The position numbers were made by a program, and so were the translations under genes. A DNA stretch of 41,915 bases from an uncultured Nitrospirota bacterium (lineage in GTDB: Bacteria; Nitrospirota; Nitrospiria; SBBL01; SBBT01): positions 1 through 41,915 of the forward strand of contig CAYRGU010000130.1 in assembly GCA_964423845.1 (NCBI GenBank), in the 5' to 3' direction. The notes under the pieces are model-generated. The model did not search any database and had not been told where the DNA came from. It worked only from the letters and a program-made list of their open reading frames with translations. The number at the start of each line of letters is the position of its first letter. Position 1 is the first letter of the stretch. This document shows positions 845 through 37,222 of the stretch, piece after piece.

Positions 845-2284
845 ATGGAGCCAACTGGCGCAGATCAGTTTTTTCTCGAACGCTATGGTCTTTCCAACCC
901 GGTATTAGAGCGGGTCCTGGGGGGTGTCCTGGGAAAACAGGTTGACTATGCCGATCTCTATTTTGAATTCCGCGTCAGCGAATCACTCGGTCTTGAAGAG
1001 GGACGGGTCAACCGGGTGGCGAAGAATATCTCCCAGGGGGCGGGGGTGCGTGCGGTGGCACGGGAGAAAACAGGCTATGCCTATTCGGATGAGATTACCG
1101 TTGACGATCTGCTTTCAGCGGCGAAGACCGCGAAGTACATTGCCGGAGAAGGGGCCTCGGCCCAATCGGTTGCCCTCCGGAATACAAATCGTCCGACGCG
1201 CGATCTCTATCCGCTTGAGACCCTCCCGATGGATGTCCCCATGGAAGAGAAGCGGGCCCTTTTGGAGCGTATGGACCTCCTGGCCCGGGGATATGATCCG
1301 AGAATTACGAAGGTGATGGCCTCCTACAGCAGCGAGTACAAGGTGGTCTTCATCGTGACGTCTGAAGGCGTGTCGGTTGGAGATATCCGGCCCTTAACCC
1401 GTTTGAGTGTGACCTGTATTGCCGAAGAGGGAGGCAATCGCCAAGTGGGAACGTACGGGGGTGGGGGGCGACACGCGTTCGGGGTTTTTTTAGAGGCGGA
1501 TCGCTTTCAAACGTATGCGAAAGAGGCGGCGCGACAGGCGATTGTTAATCTCTCTGCGATAGAGACCCCTGCGGGGACCATGGAGGTGGTGTTAGGTCCT
1601 GGCTGGCCGGGGATTCTCCTGCATGAGGCGATTGGGCATGGCCTGGAGGCCGACTTTAATCGCAAGGGCACATCGGCCTTTTCCGGGAGATTGGGGGAGA
1701 AGGTGGCCTCTTCCCTTTGCACCGTGGTGGATGATGGGACGATTCCCTCTCGCCGAGGGTCGCTGAATTGCGACGATGAGGGGACGCCAACAGGCCGAAC
1801 GGTTTTGATTGAGAATGGCGTTTTAGTCGGCTATTTACAGGATCGTTTGAACGCGACCCTCATGAAGATGCCGCTCACCGGAAATGGTCGCCGCGAAAGC
1901 TACGCCCATCCCCCCATGCCCCGGATGACCAATACAATGATGCTGGCGGGGTCGTCAGCGCCGGAGGAGATCCTCCGCTCTGTGAAGCGGGGGCTGTATG
2001 CCGTTTCCTTCGGAGGGGGCCAGGTTGATATTACGTCGGGGAAGTTTGTCTTTTCTGCGACCGAGGCGTATCTCATCGAAAATGGACGGATTGGCTCCCC
2101 GGTGAAAGGGGCGACCCTCATCGGAAATGGCCCGGATGTGTTGACTCGGGTGGTGATGGTGGGGAATGACTTGTCTCTGGACCCTGGGATTGGCACCTGT
2201 GGCAAGGAGGGACAGAGCGTTCCCGTGGGAGTGGGGCTTCCCACGATCAAGGTGTCGGAGTTGACCGTCGGTGGGACGGGGTAA
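845..2284 (+). CDS. tldD: Metalloprotease TldD
   Basis: 479 aa. It has the HEAIGHGLEADF zinc-binding motif and a GxC...GQSVPV C-terminus typical of TldD. It is followed by its usual partner pmbA. Confidence 0.9.
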   Translation: MEPTGADQFFLERYGLSNPVLERVLGGVLGKQVDYADLYFEFRVSESLGLEEGRVNRVAKNISQGAGVRAVAREKTGYAYSDEITVDDLLSAAKTAKYIAGEGASAQSVALRNTNRPTRDLYPLETLPMDVPMEEKRALLERMDLLARGYDPRITKVMASYSSEYKVVFIVTSEGVSVGDIRPLTRLSVTCIAEEGGNRQVGTYGGGGRHAFGVFLEADRFQTYAKEAARQAIVNLSAIETPAGTMEVVLGPGWPGILLHEAIGHGLEADFNRKGTSAFSGRLGEKVASSLCTVVDDGTIPSRRGSLNCDDEGTPTGRTVLIENGVLVGYLQDRLNATLMKMPLTGNGRRESYAHPPMPRMTNTMMLAGSSAPEEILRSVKRGLYAVSFGGGQVDITSGKFVFSATEAYLIENGRIGSPVKGATLIGNGPDVLTRVVMVGNDLSLDPGIGTCGKEGQSVPVGVGLPTIKVSELTVGGTG

Positions 2285-2334
2285 CCCTTTTCACGGCTTG
2301 TTCGCGGCCTTAAAAAATACCAGGACGATTTGTC

Positions 2335-3681
2335 ATGCAGTTTAATGTAGACCAGGCTGTCGCGTTATTGAAAAAGGCATTGGGATCTGGTGCCACTTCC
2401 GGGGACCTCCTGTTCGTAGAGGGAGATTCTTTTTCCGCTCAAGTCCGGATGGGAGAGATAGAAAAGATTAGCAGCGCCCACGAGAAGATCCTGGGATTGA
2501 GGCTTTTTTATGGGGTGCGCTCGGCCCTGACCTCGACGTCCGACTTAAGGCCGGACTCCCTGAATCGTTTAATGGCAGAGACCCTGGCGTTGGCTAAAAT
2601 GGCCGCCGAAGACCCCTGCTCTGGCCTGCCGGAGTTTCAGCATTGCGCCACGGCGTTTCCGAAGTTGGATATTGTTGATTCGGACATCGAGGAAATTTCC
2701 ATCGCCGAAAAGATTGATTTCGCAAAACGGGCCGAAGCGGCGGCCCTTTCCTGTGATCCACGATTGACGAACTCCGACGGGGCGGACTTCGGAAACTATC
2801 GTTCGATGGTTTTATATGCCGCAAGCAACGGATTTGATGGCGGCTTCGAGGGATCTGGGGTGTCGGTTTCAGCGGTTCCCATTGCCACCTTGAATGGCCA
2901 GATGCAGCGGGATTACTGGTATTGCTCCCGGCGAAAATTCAAGGCGCTGGCGTCGCCTGCGTCCATTGGTCAAAAGGCCGCGATGCGCACCCTCCGCCGT
3001 CTGGGCGCGAAGAAAGTCGCCACCTGTCAGGTGCCGGTCATTTTTGATCCGGAGGTGGCCTCATCGCTCCTGGGGCATCTCTCTTCGGCCCTCTCTGGCT
3101 ATGCCCTGTATAAAAAGGCCTCTTATCTGGTGGATCGGATCGGAAGTCGGATTGCCCCGACGGGGGTGACGATTCTGGAGGATCCAACCCTTGTCTCGGG
3201 CCTGGGGTCAAGGCCGTTTGATGGCGAGGGGCTTCCTTCGTGTCGCAAGGTCATCGTTGAGAACGGGATATTGAAGAGCTATCTTCTGGATACTTACTCC
3301 GCTCGAAAACTGGGTCTGACCTCGACGGGGAACGCCACCCGGGGGGCGGGAGATCCCCCGTCGGTTGGAACCACCAATTTCTATATGGCCCCTGGGCCGG
3401 ATTCCCCAGAGGAAATCATTCGATCGGTCCGAACTGGATTTTATGTGACGGAGCTGATTGGTTTTGGTGTGAACACGGTCACGGGGGATTATTCGCGCGG
3501 AGCGGTCGGGTTATGGATTGAAAATGGAGAATTCACCCACCCGGTGGAGGAGGTGACCATTGCGGGGAACCTCATGGAAATGTTTTTGAACCTTGAAAAG
3601 ATTGGCAACGATCTTGATCTTCAGAAAAGAACTTCCGCGCCGACCCTCAAAATCTCACAGATGACCGTCGCTGGGAATTAA
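2335..3681 (+). CDS. pmbA: Metalloprotease PmbA/TldE
   Basis: 448 aa. It has PmbA/TldD-family C-terminal blocks (GFYVTELIGFGVNTVTGDYSRGAVGLWIENGE, APTLKISQMTVAG) and lacks the HExxH motif, as expected for the PmbA partner. Confidence 0.88.
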   Translation: MQFNVDQAVALLKKALGSGATSGDLLFVEGDSFSAQVRMGEIEKISSAHEKILGLRLFYGVRSALTSTSDLRPDSLNRLMAETLALAKMAAEDPCSGLPEFQHCATAFPKLDIVDSDIEEISIAEKIDFAKRAEAAALSCDPRLTNSDGADFGNYRSMVLYAASNGFDGGFEGSGVSVSAVPIATLNGQMQRDYWYCSRRKFKALASPASIGQKAAMRTLRRLGAKKVATCQVPVIFDPEVASSLLGHLSSALSGYALYKKASYLVDRIGSRIAPTGVTILEDPTLVSGLGSRPFDGEGLPSCRKVIVENGILKSYLLDTYSARKLGLTSTGNATRGAGDPPSVGTTNFYMAPGPDSPEEIIRSVRTGFYVTELIGFGVNTVTGDYSRGAVGLWIENGEFTHPVEEVTIAGNLMEMFLNLEKIGNDLDLQKRTSAPTLKISQMTVAGN

Positions 3682-10033: not shown

Positions 10034-11977
10034 ATGCGCTTTTTTAGTCGACTCGGAAAAAGCAAGCTGGCCGCTGTTTCACTGTTGGGTGCCATCGCAA
10101 TACTGATCGGTCTCCCTCTTTTCTCTCAAGGGGTCCTGCCGCTCGCAGGGATTGCGCCACTCGCCGTGGGGGCAGAGGAGGTTGCCGCGCCTGAAGCGGA
10201 GGCGAAGGTTGTAAAGGGGAAGGATGTCTACTACAAGACAGAGGGCATCGTGTCGGGTCCTCCGGCGCCTAAGCTTAAATACCCTGACGACTATGGCACC
10301 TACGGTACTTTTCAGAGCCGTACGTTGGTCTGGATGGCCAATCAGCAGCACCTTTATTTTGGGAGTTTCGTTCTTGCGGTTCCCATGTTTGTTTTTGTGA
10401 TGGAATTGGTTGGGATGCTGCAGAAAGATAAAAAGATGGGCAGAAAATACGATGATCTGGCCCATGAGTTTATGAAGATCAGTCTGACCGCCTACTCCAT
10501 TACCGCGATTTTGGGAGGTCTTCTGATTTTTACCTTTCTGGCCCTTTATCCTGGTTTTTTTGGGTACCTCGCTCGTATTTTCAGGCCGATCATGCACGTT
10601 TATGCGCTTCTGTTTATTCTGGAGAGCGGAACGCTTTATGTGTACTACTATGGCTGGGATCGGATGAACGACGATGGTTTCTGGAAGTGGGTCCATCTCT
10701 CCATATCCCTCCTTTTGAACACAATTGGCTTGGCGCTGATGTTTTTTGCGAATGCCTGGGTGGCCTTTATGCAGTCGCCTGCGGGGGTGGACGAGCAGGG
10801 GCAGTTCTTGGGAAATATCTGGCGCGTTGTGCATACCCCCCTTTGGATCCCCATTGTTGTGCATCGGATTCTCGGAAATGCGGCGTTTGGGGGGGGCGTT
10901 GTAGCGGCTTACGCAGCGTATCGTCTTTTGGCGGCAAAAACTCCGGAGGAGAAGGCCCATTACGATTGGATGAGCTATACGGCGATGTTTATGGGTGTTT
11001 TAAACCTTATTCCTCTTCCGTTTGCGGGCTATTGGCTCATGCGTGAGGTCTATGCGTACCGTCAGCAGATGGGCATTACGCTGATGGGGGGCTTGCTTGC
11101 GTGGGTCTTTATTATGCAGGCCACGATGATTGCGACCCTTTTTGTAACGGTGAATTACTATCTTTGGCAGGCGATGGGCAGGATGCCGGGGGGAGAGAGA
11201 TATTATAAGTATTTCAAGTACATGCTCCTCGTATTGATTGTCTCGACCATATCCTGGCTGACACCGCATACCATCGTGATGACGCCTGCGGAGCTCAAGG
11301 CGATGGGCGGCGCGCAGCATCCTATCGTGGGAAACTATGGCGTGATGTCGGCAAAAAATACCGCCATCAACATCATGATCACCACGACGGTGCTCTGTTT
11401 CATTCTGTATCAGCGTTGTAATAAGGTTCCAACTGTAAAATGGGCGCGGGTGGGGAATCTTATTTTGGGTGCGATGTTTATTGGTGCCGCGTTTAATATT
11501 ATTTTCTTGGGGATATACGGCTATTATATCCCGGCCAATGTCCGTATTGGTCTTTCTGTCCCGCAGGTCTGTACGACCCTGACGACGCTGTTTGTGGGGG
11601 TCACCATCAACACGTTGATGTTGAAGAATGCCCGGTCTCTGGGGGAGATACGGTGGGGGACGCTTTCGACGAGGGGGGCCTATGCCCTGTTCTTGTTAGC
11701 GGTGGCGTTTACCTGGACGATGGCCGTGATGGGGTATATTCGCTCATCGGTTCGTTTGCATTGGCATATTAACGAGATTATGCGTGACAACTCCCCGTGG
11801 GCGTTCACCAATCCAATTGGCTATGCGGGCAACGTAAATTCAATGAATGTGTTGATTTTTTGGACCATGTTGTTGTTTGTATTCTGGTTGGGGGCGCTGG
11901 CTGCGAAGAAGGCCCCAGTGAAAGAGCCGGTTGGCGTCTTGCCCGGTGAAGTACCTGTGCCTGCGGATAGCCATTAA
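10034..11977 (+). CDS. CydA-like polytopic membrane protein (cytochrome bd-like oxidase subunit I homologue)
   Basis: 647 aa, with AAGGAGG 6 nt upstream. Blocks align by eye to CydA: QQHLYFGSFVLAVPMF (His19 region), FILESGTLYVYYYGWDRM (FFLES..GW region with the conserved Glu), ANAWVAFMQSPAG (ANSWMQ.PVG) and PIVVHRILGNAAFGG (His186 region). I count roughly 14 hydrophobic segments. An N-terminal signal/anchor and an Ala/Glu/Pro-rich segment precede the CydA-like core. Confidence 0.85.
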   Translation: MRFFSRLGKSKLAAVSLLGAIAILIGLPLFSQGVLPLAGIAPLAVGAEEVAAPEAEAKVVKGKDVYYKTEGIVSGPPAPKLKYPDDYGTYGTFQSRTLVWMANQQHLYFGSFVLAVPMFVFVMELVGMLQKDKKMGRKYDDLAHEFMKISLTAYSITAILGGLLIFTFLALYPGFFGYLARIFRPIMHVYALLFILESGTLYVYYYGWDRMNDDGFWKWVHLSISLLLNTIGLALMFFANAWVAFMQSPAGVDEQGQFLGNIWRVVHTPLWIPIVVHRILGNAAFGGGVVAAYAAYRLLAAKTPEEKAHYDWMSYTAMFMGVLNLIPLPFAGYWLMREVYAYRQQMGITLMGGLLAWVFIMQATMIATLFVTVNYYLWQAMGRMPGGERYYKYFKYMLLVLIVSTISWLTPHTIVMTPAELKAMGGAQHPIVGNYGVMSAKNTAINIMITTTVLCFILYQRCNKVPTVKWARVGNLILGAMFIGAAFNIIFLGIYGYYIPANVRIGLSVPQVCTTLTTLFVGVTINTLMLKNARSLGEIRWGTLSTRGAYALFLLAVAFTWTMAVMGYIRSSVRLHWHINEIMRDNSPWAFTNPIGYAGNVNSMNVLIFWTMLLFVFWLGALAAKKAPVKEPVGVLPGEVPVPADSH

Positions 11978-19808: not shown

Positions 19809-21422
19809 GTGATTTTCCCTTCCTATGATCTTTTTTGCAAGAAGGCTGGCGAGGGGAACCTCATCCCGGTCTATCGCGAGATGATCGCGGACACAGAGAC
19901 CCCTGTCTCCGCGTTCCTGAAAATCAGGGGCAGCGCTTATGCCTATCTTTTGGAAAGCGTAGAAGGGGGGGAGAAATGGGGCCGAAATTCTTTTCTGGGC
20001 ACGGATCCGCTCCTTGTGATCCGGGGCTATGGTCATTCCGTCGAGGTGATTAAAAATGGGACGACCTCCGTCATCCCTTCGAAGAATCCCCTGAATGTTT
20101 TGAGGGGGATCCTCTCTGAATTTAAACCGGTCCCTCTCGATGGCCTCCCTCGGTTCTTTGGCGGGGCGGTTGGCACCATGGGATATGGCGCCGCCCGCTT
20201 TTTTGAACAGGTTGAATCAAAAAGAAGTGATCCCGCCGCCTTACAGTTTATTTTCCTTCTGGCTGAAACCCTGCTTGTTTTTGATAATGTGGCGCATCGG
20301 ATAAAAATTATTTCCAATACCTTGATCCAGGATTCAAACCTCAAGCCTGATTCAGATCTTCAGGAAACTTACCTGAAGGCTGTAGAAAAAATTAATCAGG
20401 TGGTGCACCGGCTGGAGCAGCCCGATACTTCTGGGTTCAGTCAAATGTGCGATGAGTGGGAGGCGGCCCCTACGCGGGGTGCGGCCCCTACGACGGGTGC
20501 GGCCCCTGCGAGGGGTGCGGCCCTTGCGAGGGGTGCGACCCTTGCGAAGGGTGCGGCCCCTGCCACGCCTTCTGCGAAACGTGCCCCCCCCCAGTCCAAT
20601 GTCTCGCGGGAGGCGTTTAAAGAAAAGGTGCGGATTGCGCAGGACTATATCAAGGCGGGGGATATTTTCCAGGTCCAGCTTTCCCAACGTTTTTCGACCA
20701 CACTGACGTGCGATCCCTTCCTGGTCTATCGGGCCCTTCGGAGTATTAATCCGTCCCCCTACATGTACTATCTTCAATTTGAGTCGCTCCGGCTGGTGGG
20801 AACCTCTCCGGAGGTGCTGGTCCGGTTAGAGGAACGGGAGGTCACGATGCGTCCGATTGCCGGAACGCGCCGCCGTGGCGAGAGTCCAGAGGAAGATCTG
20901 AAAATGGCGTCTGATCTTTTGTCCGATCCCAAGGAGTTGGCGGAACATATCATGCTCGTGGATCTCGGACGAAACGATCTGGGTCGCGTCTGCGAGTATG
21001 GAACCGTCAAGGTCAACGCGCTGATGGTGATCGAGCGGTATTCTCACGTCATGCATATTGTTTCGAATCTGGTGGGCCGACTGCAGAACGGAAAGGATGC
21101 GTTTGATTTGCTGAAAGCCGCTTTTCCCGCTGGGACGGTCACCGGGTCTCCCAAGATTCGGGCCATGCAGATTATCGAGGAGTTGGAACCTTCCGACCGG
21201 GGATTTTATGCGGGGATGGTTGGCTATTTTAGTTTTCAGGGAAATCTGGATACCTGTATTACCATCCGGACCATTATTATTGACGGCGACTGTGCCACCA
21301 TTCAGGCGGCTGCGGGGATTGTGGCGGATTCAGACCCGGATCTGGAGTATGAAGAGACGGTGAATAAAGCCCGCGCGATGTTGATGGCAATTGAACTTGC
21401 GGAGCGGTGGACGAGACGATGA
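19809..21422 (+). CDS. trpE: Anthranilate synthase component I, carrying an in-frame repeat insertion
   Basis: 537 aa with a GTG start. [33 protein letters not shown] and [11 protein letters not shown] are typical of TrpE. Residues about 219-252, [34 protein letters not shown], are encoded by the 18-nt repeat. Confidence 0.93.
20463..20564 (+). repeat. 18-nt tandem palindromic repeat, about 5.7 copies, in frame inside trpE
   Basis: Units: GCGGCCCCTACGCGGGGT / GCGGCCCCTACGACGGGT / GCGGCCCCTGCGAGGGGT / GCGGCCCTTGCGAGGGGT / GCGACCCTTGCGAAGGGT / GCGGCCCCTGCC. In the best-conserved units CCCCT and AGGGG form an inverted repeat. Confidence 0.85.
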
Positions 21423-32715: not shown

Positions 32716-33834
32716 CTATGGAATGGGAACCACAATCTGCGTGCGTGTTTTATCGGGACGCGGTTCTTGCTGGAGGGGGGGGATCACGGGAATTGCGGTC
32801 TCCATCGGAGGGAGCCCTTCCGTCTGAAACTCGCTCAACACGGGGTATTCAAGGGCCGGTGCCTGGGAGACGTTCCCACTGGTTTCTGTCCTGGCCTCAC
32901 CCGGCGCGGCAGCTTGAGATGCCGGTTCCTGGGCCTGGGAGACGTTCCCACTGGTTTCTGTCATGGCCTCGCCCGACACGGCAGATTGCGGGGCCGGTTC
33001 CTGGGAGACGTTACCACTGGTTTCTGTCCTGTCCTCGCCCGACATGGCAGCTTGCGGGGCTGGTTTACTGACCCCGCTATCAGGGGGCGCTGTTTTGGCC
33101 CCAGATTTTACCTCGGACGCCGGAGTCGGTGGCGTGTCTATCCGAGGCGTCTCGGTGGGGGTCCTCCCCGCAGAGACGGTTGTGGATTCAACACGCTCCG
33201 CCACTTCCGTGGCGGCCATCAGTTCCGCACGAAGTTCCGCTGGCGCCACTGCCGGCGGCGAAGGGGGAATCTCGCTCCCAACGAGGGTATAGGTATTCGG
33301 TGTCAGGAGGACCGATTCTCCGGGCGTTTCATGGCTGCTTTTGACTTCCACGGACCCTTCCAGGCCCAAAACACCTGTGGCGGGCACGCCATTGACCTCG
33401 GTATTCCAGACAATAAAATAGGTGCCTCGCGCTGCGGCCACTGCTGTGGGGGTGTGAATTTCAAAGCGGGAGTTGCTTCCCGTGAAAAGTTTGCCCACAA
33501 GAACGCGAACGACGCCATTGCTCATTTCAATGAGGGTGCTTCGGCGGTTATTTTCAGGGTCATAAATGCTCTCCGTGATTTTAATCCGCGACCTTTCGCC
33601 CAAGCTCAAGATACTGTCATCTTCAAAGAGAAGTTTCAGTTTGGATTGAACGCCCGTCTTATAGGTATCCAAGAATAAGACGGCGTCCCCCCCTTTTGCG
33701 GTGATTATTTCGCTCTGATTGTCGTGGATGACATGGCCTTCGCGTTGCACGGCCGCGACCGATCCAATCAGCGTTTCGCACCATCCTATCGTGGGGAGGA
33801 GAAGGGCCATCAATAAAGTTAGGGGGATTTTCAT
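32716..33834 (-). CDS. Secreted FecR-domain protein with a Pro/Thr/Ser/Glu-rich repetitive C-terminal tail
   Basis: 372 aa with signal peptide MKIPLTLLMALLLPTIGW. The FecR-like beta-rich region is GSVAAVQREGHVI...GDAVLFLDTYKTGVQSKLKLLFEDDSILSLGERSRIKI. The tail contains three 22-24-aa repeats. Confidence 0.8.
   Translation of the reverse strand: MKIPLTLLMALLLPTIGWCETLIGSVAAVQREGHVIHDNQSEIITAKGGDAVLFLDTYKTGVQSKLKLLFEDDSILSLGERSRIKITESIYDPENNRRSTLIEMSNGVVRVLVGKLFTGSNSRFEIHTPTAVAAARGTYFIVWNTEVNGVPATGVLGLEGSVEVKSSHETPGESVLLTPNTYTLVGSEIPPSPPAVAPAELRAELMAATEVAERVESTTVSAGRTPTETPRIDTPPTPASEVKSGAKTAPPDSGVSKPAPQAAMSGEDRTETSGNVSQEPAPQSAVSGEAMTETSGNVSQAQEPASQAAAPGEARTETSGNVSQAPALEYPVLSEFQTEGLPPMETAIPVIPPLQQEPRPDKTRTQIVVPIP
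32855..33065 (-). repeat. Three tandem 66-72-bp coding repeats in the FecR-domain gene
   Basis: CTGGGAGACGTT(C/A)CCACTGGTTTCTGTC recurs at 32863, 32935 and 33001 (periods of 72 and 66 nt). It encodes ...(E/A)xTETSGNVSQ(E/A)(P/Q)... three times. Confidence 0.8.
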
Positions 33835-35367
33835 TTAAAACCTCCTCGACAGGTTAACGCCATAGACGCTACGTTGATACGAATAGGGGGAGATATTGGA
33901 CGGGTTGTCCGTTCGAACCATCTGCAACGAGAGGGTCACCTCTTTAGAGTACGCATAGACCAGGTTCACCTGAACGGTCGTGGTGTCGTCACGCCGCTTC
34001 TCTTTCGGTGTGGCGGTGGAAAGCGTGCTGGGATGTCGATATCGCTTCCCTTGATAATCGGCATCCAGGTCCACTCTTATCCACGGGAGCTGATAGCCGC
34101 CGCCCACCCCAAGGCGGTGCCCCTGATAGTCTAATTGATTGTCGTTCGCGGCATCAAGATCAAAAGTATATTTGAGTCGGAGGGCCCCCTTGCGCTTTGC
34201 GAAATAAAGGCTTTTCGCCCCGCTTAAGGCCTGGTTGACGCCGTCTCGATCGGAGGTGGCCGAGGCGTTCTCCGCGAAGTCTTTCTGCTGGAATTGATAG
34301 GAAAACAGTCTTCCCATGGCAGGTTGTAAGAGGGCGATCCGAACCGTCTGGTTGTTGAGATACGCCTTGCCATCCAGGGTGATGAAGTCGAAGCGATAGT
34401 CCCCTCGCAGTTGGGTTTGGTTTTTCTCATAAACCAGGTAAAGAAAAGGTTGATGGCTGGTGGTGTTAAATCTGTCCAGCGTCTGATGCAGGCTCTGATA
34501 AAGCGTGTAGCCCCCTCCCCCTCCCCAGGGGAGCGGTTTGCGGTAGGGGATGAGGCTGTTAAAAAAGAGGACGATTCGACCATCCTGCTTCTTGCTGGGC
34601 GGCGTTGAAAGGGGAAGATCCGTAGGCTCCAGAATGACGTTGTCGTCGTATTGATAACCGATACTCAAACCCATCTGCCAGTCGGAGATGCTCTCCATCC
34701 GCGCGATCCGGGTGAGATACTCTTTTGAGGATCGTCCGATCTCTGAATCGGGGGCCTGTTCCAGGACTGCCAGAAATTCATCCTTGGCCTCCGCGATGAT
34801 TTTTTGCTGGAAAAAGGCGATCCCGGCATGATACCGCGAGACTGGAATTAAGTCGGGGTGATCCAGCGTCGCCATCGCGGCGGCTCGAAGGAAGCGGGGC
34901 GCGGCGCGCTCCGGCTGGCCCATCTCTTGATAAACCTTCCCCTGGTAGAAATAGATCAGGGGGTTCTTCGCGCCGGCGCGCTCTCCCTCGGCGAGCATGT
35001 CGAGGGCGTCCTGATATTTTTTTTGTTGATGATAGACGATACCCAGATCAAGGTATGCGTCAAGGGGGAGGGGAGAGAGCGTCAGCGCAAAGCGTAAATC
35101 CTCCTCCGCCTCCAGGAATTTCCCTTGTTTTCCCTCCACCACGCCAAGGAGATGAATGGCTCGGGCATCCTGGGGATGGGCGTTGAGGGCGGCCCGGAAT
35201 GATAATTCTGCTTCGGCATATCGCTTTTGATTTACGAGGGCGATGCCGCGGGTCATTTTAAGATCATATTCCTCGTGGTCCAGAATTTGCGCAAAGACAC
35301 AAGGCGTTTCAAACAGCATGAAAGCAAAGAGAAGCATTAAAAGGGGGAGGTGGACGGGCGGTTTCAC
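33835..35367 (-). CDS. TPR-repeat + C-terminal beta-barrel outer-membrane protein (Slam/DUF560-like or BcsC/PgaA-like architecture)
   Basis: The N-terminal half has TPR-like repeats (AEAELSFRAALNAHPQDARAIHLLGVV..., YQDALDMLAEG..., YFYQGKVYQEMGQPERA). The C-terminal about 280 aa have alternating beta-strand periodicity and end in ...YGVNLSRRF. I prefer the GTG at 35367 (VKPPVHLPLLMLLFAFMLFETPCVFAQ signal peptide), which overlaps the glk TGA as GTGA. The track ORF extends to 35460. Confidence 0.7.
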   Translation of the reverse strand: MKPPVHLPLLMLLFAFMLFETPCVFAQILDHEEYDLKMTRGIALVNQKRYAEAELSFRAALNAHPQDARAIHLLGVVEGKQGKFLEAEEDLRFALTLSPLPLDAYLDLGIVYHQQKKYQDALDMLAEGERAGAKNPLIYFYQGKVYQEMGQPERAAPRFLRAAAMATLDHPDLIPVSRYHAGIAFFQQKIIAEAKDEFLAVLEQAPDSEIGRSSKEYLTRIARMESISDWQMGLSIGYQYDDNVILEPTDLPLSTPPSKKQDGRIVLFFNSLIPYRKPLPWGGGGGYTLYQSLHQTLDRFNTTSHQPFLYLVYEKNQTQLRGDYRFDFITLDGKAYLNNQTVRIALLQPAMGRLFSYQFQQKDFAENASATSDRDGVNQALSGAKSLYFAKRKGALRLKYTFDLDAANDNQLDYQGHRLGVGGGYQLPWIRVDLDADYQGKRYRHPSTLSTATPKEKRRDDTTTVQVNLVYAYSKEVTLSLQMVRTDNPSNISPYSYQRSVYGVNLSRRF

Positions 35368-36353
35368 GCGGTCTCTACAGTATCCATGGCGTAGTGGACG
35401 GCGCCGATTAAAGGCGTCTCGGGGGCGAGAATGACGTGAACCGGAATGCGATTTAACCACTCCTGAAACCGCCCCTTGCTTAAAAAGGCGTTCATGAAAT
35501 GCCCCGCCTGTAGCACGGAGAGGATCTTGGGGGCAATCCCTCCGCCGACAAAGATCCCTCCGGTTGCCCCGACCTTGAGGGCAAAATTACCGGCCTCTGC
35601 GCCATAAATGGAAGCGAACAGCCGAATTGATTCCTGGCACAGGGGGTGGCCTTCCTCGCGCGCGACTGCGGTAATGCCCTCCGCAGGGTCGCCGAGGGCC
35701 AGACGCTCCCCCAGCCAGGGCGGCTCGTCCGCGAAACCGGTCTCTTTGAGAAACCGGTAGAGATTAACCAACCCCGCCCCGGAAAGAATCCGTTCGATGC
35801 TGACATGTCCCCACAGAGGGCTTAGAAACTGGAGTAATTTTATTTCCTGATCCGACCGGGGCGCAAAATCGGTATGTCCCCCTTCCGTGGCGATCGGGAG
35901 ATAGCGGTTTCCCGTCCAGCAGAGAAACGCTTCTCCGAGGCCGGTTCCTGCCGCAAGCGTGCCGATGGGGCCATTGGGGTCCGGGAGCCCTGAATTTAGT
36001 GTGACCCTTTGCCGACCGGTCAGAAAGCGTGTGCCATAGGCGATCGCCTGCACATCGTTGAGAAGGAGGACACGAGGAATGTGAAGCAGGGTTTCAAGAG
36101 CGGCCGCGTCAATGTCCCAGGAGAGGTTTGTCATCTGGCACCTCTGATTTTGAATGGGACCTGCGACGGCGAATACGCCGGTTGTCACAGAAGGCGCACC
36201 TTCCAGAAATTGCGTCAGAATCGCCTCGAAGTTTACGAACGATTGATTCAGGTAAACCGCCTCCTTAACCGGAGTCAGCGTTCCAGAACCCGTTTTTGAA
36301 AAAAGAGCGAGCGCGGTTTTGGTCCCGCCGATATCGCCTGTCAGGAGGATCAT
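35364..36353 (-). CDS. glk: Glucokinase
   Basis: MILLTGDIGGTKTALALF (ROK/Glk N-terminal ATP motif), GLGEAFL and GGIFVGGGIAPKIL. The ATG at 36353 overlaps the pgl TGA (ATGA). The track ORF extends to 36434. Confidence 0.88.
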   Translation of the reverse strand: MILLTGDIGGTKTALALFSKTGSGTLTPVKEAVYLNQSFVNFEAILTQFLEGAPSVTTGVFAVAGPIQNQRCQMTNLSWDIDAAALETLLHIPRVLLLNDVQAIAYGTRFLTGRQRVTLNSGLPDPNGPIGTLAAGTGLGEAFLCWTGNRYLPIATEGGHTDFAPRSDQEIKLLQFLSPLWGHVSIERILSGAGLVNLYRFLKETGFADEPPWLGERLALGDPAEGITAVAREEGHPLCQESIRLFASIYGAEAGNFALKVGATGGIFVGGGIAPKILSVLQAGHFMNAFLSKGRFQEWLNRIPVHVILAPETPLIGAVHYAMDTVETA

Positions 36354-37222
36354 CCCCGATGCCTTAAGTCGTGTGCCGCAGCTCGGTCGACAAGCCAGAG
36401 GCACTGTCCGTGTTGCGGGCGAATCTGTTGGCAAGGGAGGGCTGTGGCGGGGGGCGCGCCTTCAAAAACCTGGGACAGGGCCGGGGCCTTGTCTTGTCCG
36501 ACCACCAGGAAAATAATGAAGCGGGCCTGATTGATGATGCAGGGGGTTAGGGTCAGGCGGTTTCCATGACGGGAGGTCACCGGTACGACCCAGCGATGGG
36601 TCTCCTGCCACGTGGCCGCGCCCCCCGCAGGGGTCGCACCCCTCGTAGGGGCCGCAGCGCTCGCAGCTCCCGCTTCCGGAAAGAGCGAGGCGGTATGTCC
36701 ATCCGCCCCCATGCCAAGGAGCACCAGATCAAACGCGGGCGGGGTTGCGCCCCTGGCAGGGGTTGCGCCACCCGCCGGGGTCGCACCCCTCGTAGGGGTC
36801 GTTGGCCCCTCGACGGAAGAGGGCGTAAAATGCCGCTGAATGTCCGCTTCATAGCGGGACGCTGCGCCGTCTAAATCGGGGTCCTCCGCTTCCATCCGGT
36901 GAATGAAGTGGGCGGGGATGCCAAGCGGTGTCAGCAGGCATTCTTTTGCCATCTGGTAGTTGCTTTCCGGATGATCCGGCGGGACGGCGCGTTCGTCGCC
37001 AAAAAAGAAGTGAGTTTTCAGCCAGTATTCTTCGTTGGGATCTCTGGCCAGCAGGGAATAGAGCCCTTTTGGGGTGGCCCCGCCCGCCAGGACAAAACGG
37101 AACGTCTCCCGCTCACGAAGCGCCTCCCTCGCGATCCGCGTCATTTGTCGGGCCGCTTCCCTAAAGACCTGATCGGGATGATTTAGGATATGGGGCGGGT
37201 TGATGGTTAGAGGGCCCTCCAT
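36350..37222 (-). CDS. pgl: 6-phosphogluconolactonase, carrying two in-frame repeat insertions
   Basis: 290 aa. FRFVLAGGATPKGLY, FFGDERAVPPDHPESNY and FDLVLLGMGADGHTASLFP are Pgl/NagB-family signatures. PTRGATPAGGATPARGATPP and APTRGATPAGGAA flank the GMGADGH block. Confidence 0.85.
   Translation of the reverse strand: MEGPLTINPPHILNHPDQVFREAARQMTRIAREALRERETFRFVLAGGATPKGLYSLLARDPNEEYWLKTHFFFGDERAVPPDHPESNYQMAKECLLTPLGIPAHFIHRMEAEDPDLDGAASRYEADIQRHFTPSSVEGPTTPTRGATPAGGATPARGATPPAFDLVLLGMGADGHTASLFPEAGAASAAAPTRGATPAGGAATWQETHRWVVPVTSRHGNRLTLTPCIINQARFIIFLVVGQDKAPALSQVFEGAPPATALPCQQIRPQHGQCLWLVDRAAAHDLRHRG
36615..36655 (-). repeat. 18-nt palindromic repeat, about 2.3 copies (block A), in frame inside pgl
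   Basis: The plus strand reads ...GGGGTCGCACCCCTCGTAGGGGCCGC. The reverse complement, GCGGCCCCTACGAGGGGTGCGACCCC, is the same unit as in trpE. Confidence 0.8.
36741..36802 (-). repeat. 18-nt palindromic repeat, about 3.4 copies (block B), in frame inside pgl
   Basis: Plus-strand units: GGGGTTGCGCCCCTGGCA / GGGGTTGCGCCACCCGCC / GGGGTCGCACCCCTCGTA / GGGGTCGT. Confidence 0.8.

Follow-up and report, generated by a model that had tools for sequence, protein, structure and literature searches.

A dispersed 18-nt palindromic tandem repeat in frame in trpE and pgl of an uncultured Nitrospirota bacterium: a probable selfish minisatellite

Of all places in a genome, coding sequence is normally the one least open to selfish DNA. 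Rickettsia palindromic elements (RPEs), of which RPE-1 to RPE-8 were reportedly described by Ogata and colleagues in 2000 and 2002, are palindromic selfish repeats that lie in frame in tolerated surface segments of many unrelated housekeeping genes and also between genes; they are single insertions of about 100-150 bp, found only in Rickettsia and with one main coding reading. RPE-4 and RPE-6 are mentioned in PMC3733652. Here we analyzed a 41,915-nt stretch of DNA from an uncultured Nitrospirota bacterium (the window), which makes up an entire NCBI contig and in which an 18-nt palindromic unit is repeated in tandem within trpE and pgl. An earlier note on this stretch had proposed a selfish element that colonises coding sequence in the manner of RPEs, with a shorter and tandemly amplified unit. 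We consider it probable that the trpE and pgl arrays are copies of a dispersed, non-autonomous palindromic minisatellite family.

Other described systems share some of these properties. The very small dispersed repeats (SDR) of cyanobacteria, said to have been reported by Elhai and colleagues in 2008, and the palindromic coding repeats (MJRE) of Methanocaldococcus jannaschii, reportedly described by Suyama and colleagues in 2000, measure tens of nt, have hairpin potential, behave like mobile DNA and occasionally lie within genes without disrupting them. Minisatellites or variable number tandem repeats (VNTRs) of the mycobacterial interspersed repetitive unit (MIRU) type are head-to-tail arrays with whole-unit changes between close relatives, a homogenised interior and degenerate edges; their units are locus-specific and non-palindromic. 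Tagged repetitive extragenic palindromes (REPs; GTAG or CGTC) are 20-40 bp long, with 8-9-bp stems, 4-5-nt loops and an unpaired tag (Di Nocera et al. 2013, PMC3733652). They are mostly extragenic, form head-to-head or tail-to-tail dimers and are linked to REP-associated tyrosine transposases (RAYTs) (PMC3733652). Yeast mitochondrial GC clusters (PMC4478555) and Allomyces double-hairpin elements (DHEs; Paquin et al. 2000, cited in PMC7218506) are tiny mobile GC-rich palindromes or double hairpins of about 30-80 nt that can lie in coding or rRNA regions, optional between close relatives as our arrays are; they are organellar, usually single copies and not known to be shared across bacterial phyla.

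Tandem Repeats Finder (TRF) detected the trpE array at 20463-20563, with a period of 18, 5.6 copies, 89% matches, a score of 146 and the consensus GCGGCCCCTGCGAGGGGT. Read directly, the unit letters at 20463-20564 are GCGGCCCCT(A/G)CGAGGGGT, and a looser half-unit parse widens the array to 20457-20573. It encodes residues ~219-252 (AAPTRG...GAAPA) of the window protein, which is 537 aa long versus typically ~492 aa in relatives (nearest match ~64% identity in BLASTP local alignment, up to 69% in a MAFFT alignment). About 40 extra residues occur only in the window TrpE, and none of 120 aligned homologues has the segment. Within this alignment the insert falls in a hypervariable linker, ~30 residues ahead of the conserved core motif, and all invariant columns of the family are intact in the window protein. 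An alignment to the PDB places query residues 211-263 opposite 11 residues in 7bvd. An AlphaFold model built with 50 homologues reached a predicted local distance difference test score (pLDDT) of 85.4 and a predicted template modeling score (pTM) of 0.86; pLDDT fell below 50 solely at residues 221-251, which are the repeat, and residues 219-261 had no secondary structure. The insert is thus modeled as a disordered surface loop in an otherwise confident fold. The earlier note had read an 18-nt tandem repeat in frame in trpE, with a 34-residue translation, and had placed it in the variable linker before the core; the TRF result, the alignment and the structure model bear out both statements.

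A pattern scan of the window for the 18-nt unit with at most three mismatches yielded eight matches versus 0.08 expected. The matches outside trpE belong to two arrays in pgl on the opposite strand, where 261 residues of the protein span 223 positions of the Glucosamine_iso profile. Array A directly follows a conserved LLGMGADGHTASLFP motif, with pattern matches at 36620-36637 and 36638-36655; array B directly precedes the same motif, and its unit matches carry 3-4 mismatches. Both align to gaps in solved 6-phosphogluconolactonases in a PDB search (array B versus 1y89 and 3oc6). The trpE array and both pgl arrays have one common reading, x-x-P-x-R-G. The earlier claim that pgl holds the same unit in the same frame on the other strand therefore stands for the unit and the shared xxPxRG reading; there are, however, two sites in pgl, and the frame is not a property of the element, which is read in six ways elsewhere. 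The gene belongs to a minus-strand cluster, zwf-pgl-glk; the listed glk open reading frame (ORF) at 35364-36434, which starts with TTG, shares 85 nt with the 3' end of pgl, and the true glk start is probably further downstream.

We tentatively assign a fourth, decayed array to positions 10126-10170, close to the N-terminal end of a cytochrome-bd-like ORF (10034-11977, Pfam), where the plus strand reads GVLPLAGIAPLAVG; the matches score 19-20/27, and a Markov control gave 0.4-2.2 single matches per window. With 75-89% unit identity, and situated in the two most benign readings, the window copies look like old, decaying survivors and not like recent insertions. They are probably old passengers that form disordered surface loops and take no part in catalysis.

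The unit has the window form (A/G)CCCCT-(A/G)CG-AGGGGT-GCG and the general form ACCCCT-NCG-AGGGGT-GCG, that is, two complementary 6-nt stems, each followed by a 3-nt loop (6-3-6-3). It consists of two 9-nt halves, (A/G)CCCCT+NCG and AGGGGT+GCG, so that two overlapping hairpin registers alternate along an array (CCCCT/AGGGG and GGGGT/ACCCC, each with 3-nt loops), and an array is nearly self-complementary. The commonest loop outside the window is GCG, not ACG. This TGC variant has no stop in any of the six frames and encodes one Pro and one Gly in each (ATPARG, RPLRGV, DPCEGC, TPRRGR, PLAGVA and PSQGSH), so that whichever reading is used yields a flexible loop. Variation within the main family is lowest in the CCCC and GGGG cores. 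Compensated stem changes numbered 29 versus 13.0 expected, a value reached in 0 of 1000 shuffles, although this statistic is inflated because duplicated units are not independent. Either half-unit can form the start or the end of an array, and half-unit counts are odd or even; terminal units carry 1.5 mismatches versus 0.6 in internal units, and the flanks show no motif. A polarity of the arrays, or a distinct terminal unit, was not convincing (the first unit has an ACG loop in 8 of 75 arrays, inner units in 13 of 290 cases, p = 0.05). Single-base length changes occurred only in two arrays, L011 and L032, whose short-ORF contexts are probably intergenic.

Dispersal of the unit was examined with the exact pattern CCCCTRCGAGGGGTGCGRCCC in reference genomes, one per GTDB species. 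The unit was present at 49 loci, with an estimated chance expectation of ~1-10. More than half of these loci (28 of 49) lie in a single Nitrospirota metagenome-assembled genome (MAG), CAZQIT01; the Ca. Troglogloeales MAGs SBBA01 and JACPZM01 have four each, and four further Nitrospirota MAGs also carry the unit. Multi-unit arrays were found in MAGs labelled Clostridiales, Clostridia, Desulfovibrionaceae, Deltaproteobacteria and Bacillota, and in an isolate of Ciceribacter (Rhizobiaceae, L017). A scan of metagenomes with a stricter 32-nt pattern added 18 loci, in which the unit is identical on contigs of 45-70% GC. One array lies on a phage-like IMG/VR contig of 89,989 bp (UViG_3300027891_000005, loci L050 / L059) that encodes a major head protein, capsid and virion proteins; its nine half-units (L059, 10611-10691) are located inside a 508-aa, weakly tail-sheath-like gene. 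L060 carries a 5,859-bp stretch that is 100% identical to L059, array included, and a solo TnpB (OrfB_IS605 / Cas12f-like TNB) is encoded 7 kb from the phage array. In the nearest relatives of the window, ~86 kb surrounding their trpE and rnr orthologues contained no array, which makes the family a patchy one. A megablast search of finished plasmids and phages with a four-unit query gave no match, for which the low-complexity filter may partly account.

Dozens of sites, within genes and between them, thus carry copies, in related MAGs and also outside this group, as the tally proposed in the earlier note was meant to reveal, and the counter-case of an ordinary linker confined to two genes is excluded by this dispersal. 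A broader form of that case holds that the insert is a low-complexity Ala/Pro/Gly linker grown by local slippage in trpE, its likeness to pgl being due to chance or to selection at the amino-acid level. The insert does lie within a naturally hypervariable linker, Ala/Pro-rich linkers are common, and the array in the Ciceribacter AcoC-like protein occupies a classical lipoyl-domain linker. Yet one nucleotide unit recurs across genomes, within dozens of unrelated genes, where it is read in six frames, and between genes, and the eight matches in the window far exceed expectation. Since six-frame use and intergenic copies place the identity at the level of DNA and not of the peptide, we regard the linker explanation as very improbable.

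Comparison of relatives revealed gain and loss of whole units. Three loci, L054, L064 and L065, have flanks that are ~93% identical and arrays that differ in length by exactly 18 and 36 nt. A filled and empty pair is formed by L068, with exactly one unit (ACCCCTGCGAGGGGTGCG), and L064, with none; the L068 unit adjoins a pre-existing half-unit-like ACGCCCGCG, and there is no target duplication. Two RNase R orthologues carry a 54-nt array (L061) and a 72-nt array (L005) that differ in position and frame; neither orthologue has an array at the site occupied in the other. The L061 gene additionally has two degenerate older arrays. Counted over its whole ORF (1378-3360), there are four arrays of differing ages and frames, among them a fresh TPARGA x3 and the degenerate PARDPVPPARGSTPAG and RALRGTQPLQG, which suggests repeated colonisation of one gene. 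L069 / P0121, a relative with 89% DNA identity, has one degenerate unit versus four in L005, a 54-nt indel, and a separate decayed 45-nt array. No array was found in 118 more distant RNase R proteins. All filled and empty junctions are exact multiples of 18 nt without target duplication. The presence/absence and copy-number polymorphism between orthologues that the earlier note had asked about is therefore real, and together with the dispersal it favors the selfish palindromic element proposed there.

Variation in unit number (18- and 36-nt differences, and 54 nt at 89% nucleotide identity) is a property that the arrays share with VNTRs, as are the head-to-tail order, the homogenised interior and the degenerate edges. 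In contrast to VNTRs, the unit is dispersed, with covarying hairpin stems, and was found at 49 + 18 + 1 loci in many genomes. Two further classes were considered and rejected: a CRISPR array, as the units are contiguous and have no spacers, and a miniature inverted-repeat transposable element, as there is no target-site duplication, lengths are exact multiples of 18 nt and the ends vary.

The same comparisons bear on whether the arrays were produced by metagenome assemblers or sequencing at GC-rich palindromes. Carriers are almost all MAGs or metagenome contigs, and finished plasmids and phages gave no match, as such an artefact would predict. Arrays nevertheless come from independent assemblers and projects and from one isolate genome (L017), are always in frame inside conserved genes, and differ between orthologues by exact units in otherwise collinear alignments. 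Degenerate old copies exist, and the trpE units differ by point substitutions that give unique k-mers. An artefact is, in our judgment, hardly credible.

Long ORFs that span arrays are real genes according to Pfam, many of them essential housekeeping genes, and arrays often lie within the domain envelopes (Table 1). Among the loci of moderate GC content, chosen by the strict pattern and an ORF heuristic, 35 of 61 arrays are clearly intragenic (~57%), the other 26 being situated at gene edges or within short ORFs. The genic readings are PLAGVA (13), ATPARG (9), PSQGSH (6), TPRRGR (3), DPCEGC (3) and RPLRGV (1); all six frames are used, and the strongly basic and Cys-rich readings hold fewer copies. 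Orientation with respect to transcription is mixed (13 sense, 22 antisense). Whole-unit gain and loss, dispersal, insertion in real genes in all frames, decay and, from the structure model, disorder of the TrpE insert are shown by these data.

These properties place the arrays close to RPEs in one respect, as in-frame, fold-compatible palindromic insertions (TrpE pLDDT, verified hosts). Unlike RPEs, the unit is 18 nt long, arranged head-to-tail, read in six frames and polymorphic in number, and its hosts are Nitrospirota and others, covering several phyla and a phage. As for SDR and MJRE, we know of no fixed 6-3-6-3 tandem layout, six-frame use or cross-phylum identity among them, and their sequences, sizes and hosts differ. 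A literature search by sequence, peptide and concept found no description of the element, which does not prove that none exists; a Geobacter element considered as a match is an unrelated GGGACCG heptamer element.

Four intergenic CAZQIT01 copies (L014, minus strand, ~168; L031, plus strand, 6342; L032, minus strand, ~3237; L044, plus strand, 2076) share a composite of ~110 nt in the order AGGGGCTTGCGTCGCCCCTGCGAGGGGTGCGACCCCCTC, internal hairpin, ...CCCCTCAACGCCGCTTTGCGGC.GGTTAAAACCATG. The stems of the internal hairpin vary between copies with compensatory changes, and the composite copies are situated after stop codons. A role of the composite as leader of one gene family was rejected; the terminal ATG in L014, the only copy checked, starts an ORF of three codons and is not the beginning of a gene. 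Rfam returned nothing in the window or in the four composite-element loci. A 19-nt-period variant array (GGGCGAACCCCTGCACGGG, 2.2 copies) at L069 2241-2281 lies directly after the apparent 3' end of a tRNA gene.

An adaptive cis-acting structure, which would pause ribosomes, stabilise mRNA, terminate transcription or bind a regulator with only incidental effects on coding, would agree with this placement of intergenic copies after stop codons inside a conserved composite, and with the excess of compensatory stem changes. Further, the trpE array folded as RNA reaches -88 kcal/mol and is more stable than shuffles (z = -3.6), and REPs are thought to work as RNA elements (PMC3733652). Sites are not conserved between orthologues, however, with arrays present or absent at 87-89% identity, and positions within genes are scattered in the mixed orientation given above. 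The window copies are decaying and no Rfam family was matched. We therefore consider a cis-acting function improbable.

The 6-3-6-3 plan is not limited to the main family. TRF applied to all loci showed that period 18 dominates. Other families with unrelated stems share this plan and the T-GCG-A/ACG loops, in contigs that also carry the main family (Table 1). Their loops are mostly ACG/GCG, and some of their arrays are indel-polymorphic between L064 and L068. Of the non-family arrays, 12 of 24 with period 18 form perfect double hairpins, versus none of 19 with period 15, 21 or 24 and none of 8 with a period of 14-17; the remaining off-18 double hairpins are one 19-nt main-family variant and one array of period 23. 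Palindromic tandem arrays are therefore essentially restricted to period 18.

Such regularity raises the question of a dedicated enzyme. The arrays could be REP-like elements moved by a structure-specific enzyme, either a nickase or a RAYT / Y1-HUH transposase (IS200/IS605 type). On single-stranded DNA it would bind the hairpin with its T-GCG-A loop and insert copies, leaving the target unduplicated; tandem amplification would be a secondary process. In favor of this proposal, families in the same contigs share the fixed geometry and conserved loops and have stems that co-vary, one 18-mer recurs across phyla and in a phage, and target-site duplication is lacking, as with Y1 transposases. The arrays also resemble REPs, bacterial interspersed mosaic elements (BIMEs) and REPINs (PMC3116915) in being short GC-rich hairpins of high copy number with several families per genome and no target-site duplication, and some copies lie inside coding regions, especially those for DNA repair and RNA helicases; REPs within genes, with repair genes as frequent hosts, are on record (PMC3733652). 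The reverse strand of the window variant reads CGTAGGGG, that is, GTAG and then the hairpin. Outside the window this likeness is lost: ~90% of half-units (75 arrays) have G and not A at that loop position, so that the consensus is GCAG, and CGTC occurs only in the four composite intergenic copies. The size also differs from tagged REPs, the unit being 18 nt with 5-6-bp stems and 3-nt loops, as does the location (35 of 61 arrays intragenic), and all arrays are head-to-tail at an 18-nt period, an organisation that is negligible in tagged REPs. Moreover, no defined element ends were found, given the start on either half-unit, odd and even counts, degenerate termini and flanks without a motif. A tblastn search of the window and 68 loci with an E. 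coli RAYT sequence gave no match, which is a weak test, and the solo TnpB near the phage array was the sole transposase seen. On balance, we hold a REP-like element with such an enzyme to be rather unlikely.

We favor, as the probable explanation, a selfish, structure-dependent palindromic minisatellite. A new site would first be seeded by a structure-dependent copying event. The route we prefer, with a probability somewhat below even, is ectopic template switching or the conversion of a chance half-unit-like site by a short tract of another array; variable ends, degenerate termini, the lack of a target motif or duplication and one half-unit-like empty site favor it. Seeding by a dedicated hairpin-specific enzyme is a less likely alternative, supported by the fixed geometry, the conservation of the loops and the identity across phyla. 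Whole 18-nt units would then be gained and lost by slipped-strand mispairing, assisted by the two alternative hairpin registers, a step that is evident because relatives differ by whole-unit indels. Selection would act as a filter on the six codons added per unit, so that copies persist where a flexible loop is tolerated, which the data partly show, and point mutation would finally decay them. By structure, the nearest analogues are the organellar GC clusters and double-hairpin elements. Neither these nor the arrays described here are known to have a dedicated transposase.

Several observations weigh against the selfish minisatellite as we propose it. The seeding of a new site is inferred and was never observed, and the half-unit-like target (ACGCCCGCG) was seen in only one clean recent filled/empty pair, the others being too diverged. 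The exact 6-3-6-3 geometry and the cross-phylum identity of the 18-mer are easier to explain by a specific protein than by template switching without an enzyme, and the search for an associated gene covered the window and 68 loci, so that one may be encoded elsewhere in the genomes. Folded as DNA, the trpE array gains no stability over dinucleotide shuffles (z = -0.6). The taxonomy of some non-Nitrospirota MAG contigs could be wrong, the 35:26 ratio of genic to intergenic arrays depends on how loci were chosen, and the compensation count shares the non-independence noted above.

More speculatively, the arrays might constitute a previously unrecognised class of prokaryotic mobile DNA, made of 18-nt "dumbbell" units with a 6-bp stem, two triloops and a conserved T-GCG-A, in which several families would share one geometry-specific mechanism and spread horizontally between phyla, possibly via phages. 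We consider this possible but doubtful. Candidate mechanisms would be a dedicated hairpin nickase or HUH enzyme, or else nick and fold-back or rolling-circle copying of a mini-dumbbell. If such a class exists, it would generally provide essential enzymes with in-frame disordered loops containing Pro and Gly, on any strand and in any frame, and if the 6-3-6-3 geometry reflects a dedicated enzyme, this would be an undescribed DNA-hairpin-processing activity with biotechnological potential.

The selfish minisatellite also has consequences of its own. A unit of six codons, stop-free in its commonest form and with Pro and Gly in every reading, can apparently be inserted in either orientation and any phase as a harmless loop. 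The arrays are therefore a natural experiment in the tolerance of enzymes to loop insertions (RNB, DNA-ligase adenylation, ATP-grasp and Asd dimerisation envelopes) and a possible source of new linkers. In uncultured Nitrospirota, among them relatives of manganese oxidisers, their rapid length polymorphism could serve to mark strains, and the arrays call for caution in the annotation and structure prediction of MAG proteins.

Table 1. Positions and properties of arrays, host genes and repeat families (positions without a locus name refer to the window)
Feature	Position	Strand	Description
Main array	20463..20564	+	5 full 18-nt units + 12-nt partial unit, in frame in trpE (direct reading, TRF)
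Host gene trpE (anthranilate synthase component I)	19809..21422	+	537 aa; Pfam Anth_synt_I_N + Chorismate_bind
Host gene pgl (6-phosphogluconolactonase)	36350..37222	-	290 aa; Pfam Glucosamine_iso E = 3e-61
pgl array A	36614..36656	-	~2.4 units; read AAPTRGATPAGGAA, residues ~190-203 (TRF, sequence)
pgl array B	36741..36802	-	~3.4 degenerate units; read TTPTRGATPAGGATPARGATP, residues ~141-161 (TRF, sequence)
Possible fourth array, strongly decayed	10126..10170	-	5 half-units; three in-phase matches 9 nt apart
Arrays within domains			RNase R (RNB), ATP-dependent DNA ligase (adenylation), Asd (dimerisation), PurT (ATP-grasp)
Further Pfam-verified hosts			AlaRS, UvrB, UvrD-like helicase, TamB, DEAD-box helicase
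Further Pfam-verified hosts			Type I restriction R subunit, MqnA-like protein, Peripla_BP_2 lipoprotein, AcoC-like lipoyl protein
Main-family variant			ACTCCT/AGGAGT
Other families			AGCAGA-ACG-TCTGCT-GCG; AGGGCA-ACG-TGCCCT-GCG
Other family			ACAGCC-ACG-GGCTGT-GCG; Ciceribacter isolate
Other families			ACCGCT-CCC-AGCGGT-GGG; GTCGG-AACG-CCGAC-TGCG
Other-family arrays	L064 3801-3860, 4753-4827, 5869-5931; L063 255-297; L054 3921-3964
Other-family arrays	L066 4717-4795; L017 984-1045; L069 6545-6622

The window contains one further tandem repeat, of 66 bp, at 32853-33065 (3.1 copies, 81% matches, TRF score 281). It lies inside a FecR-domain ORF (32716-33834, minus strand), C-terminal to the FecR domain. 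This ORF adjoins a TPR / SlipAM-like outer-membrane gene, and the pair of FecR and TPR/SlipAM genes recurs in L069.

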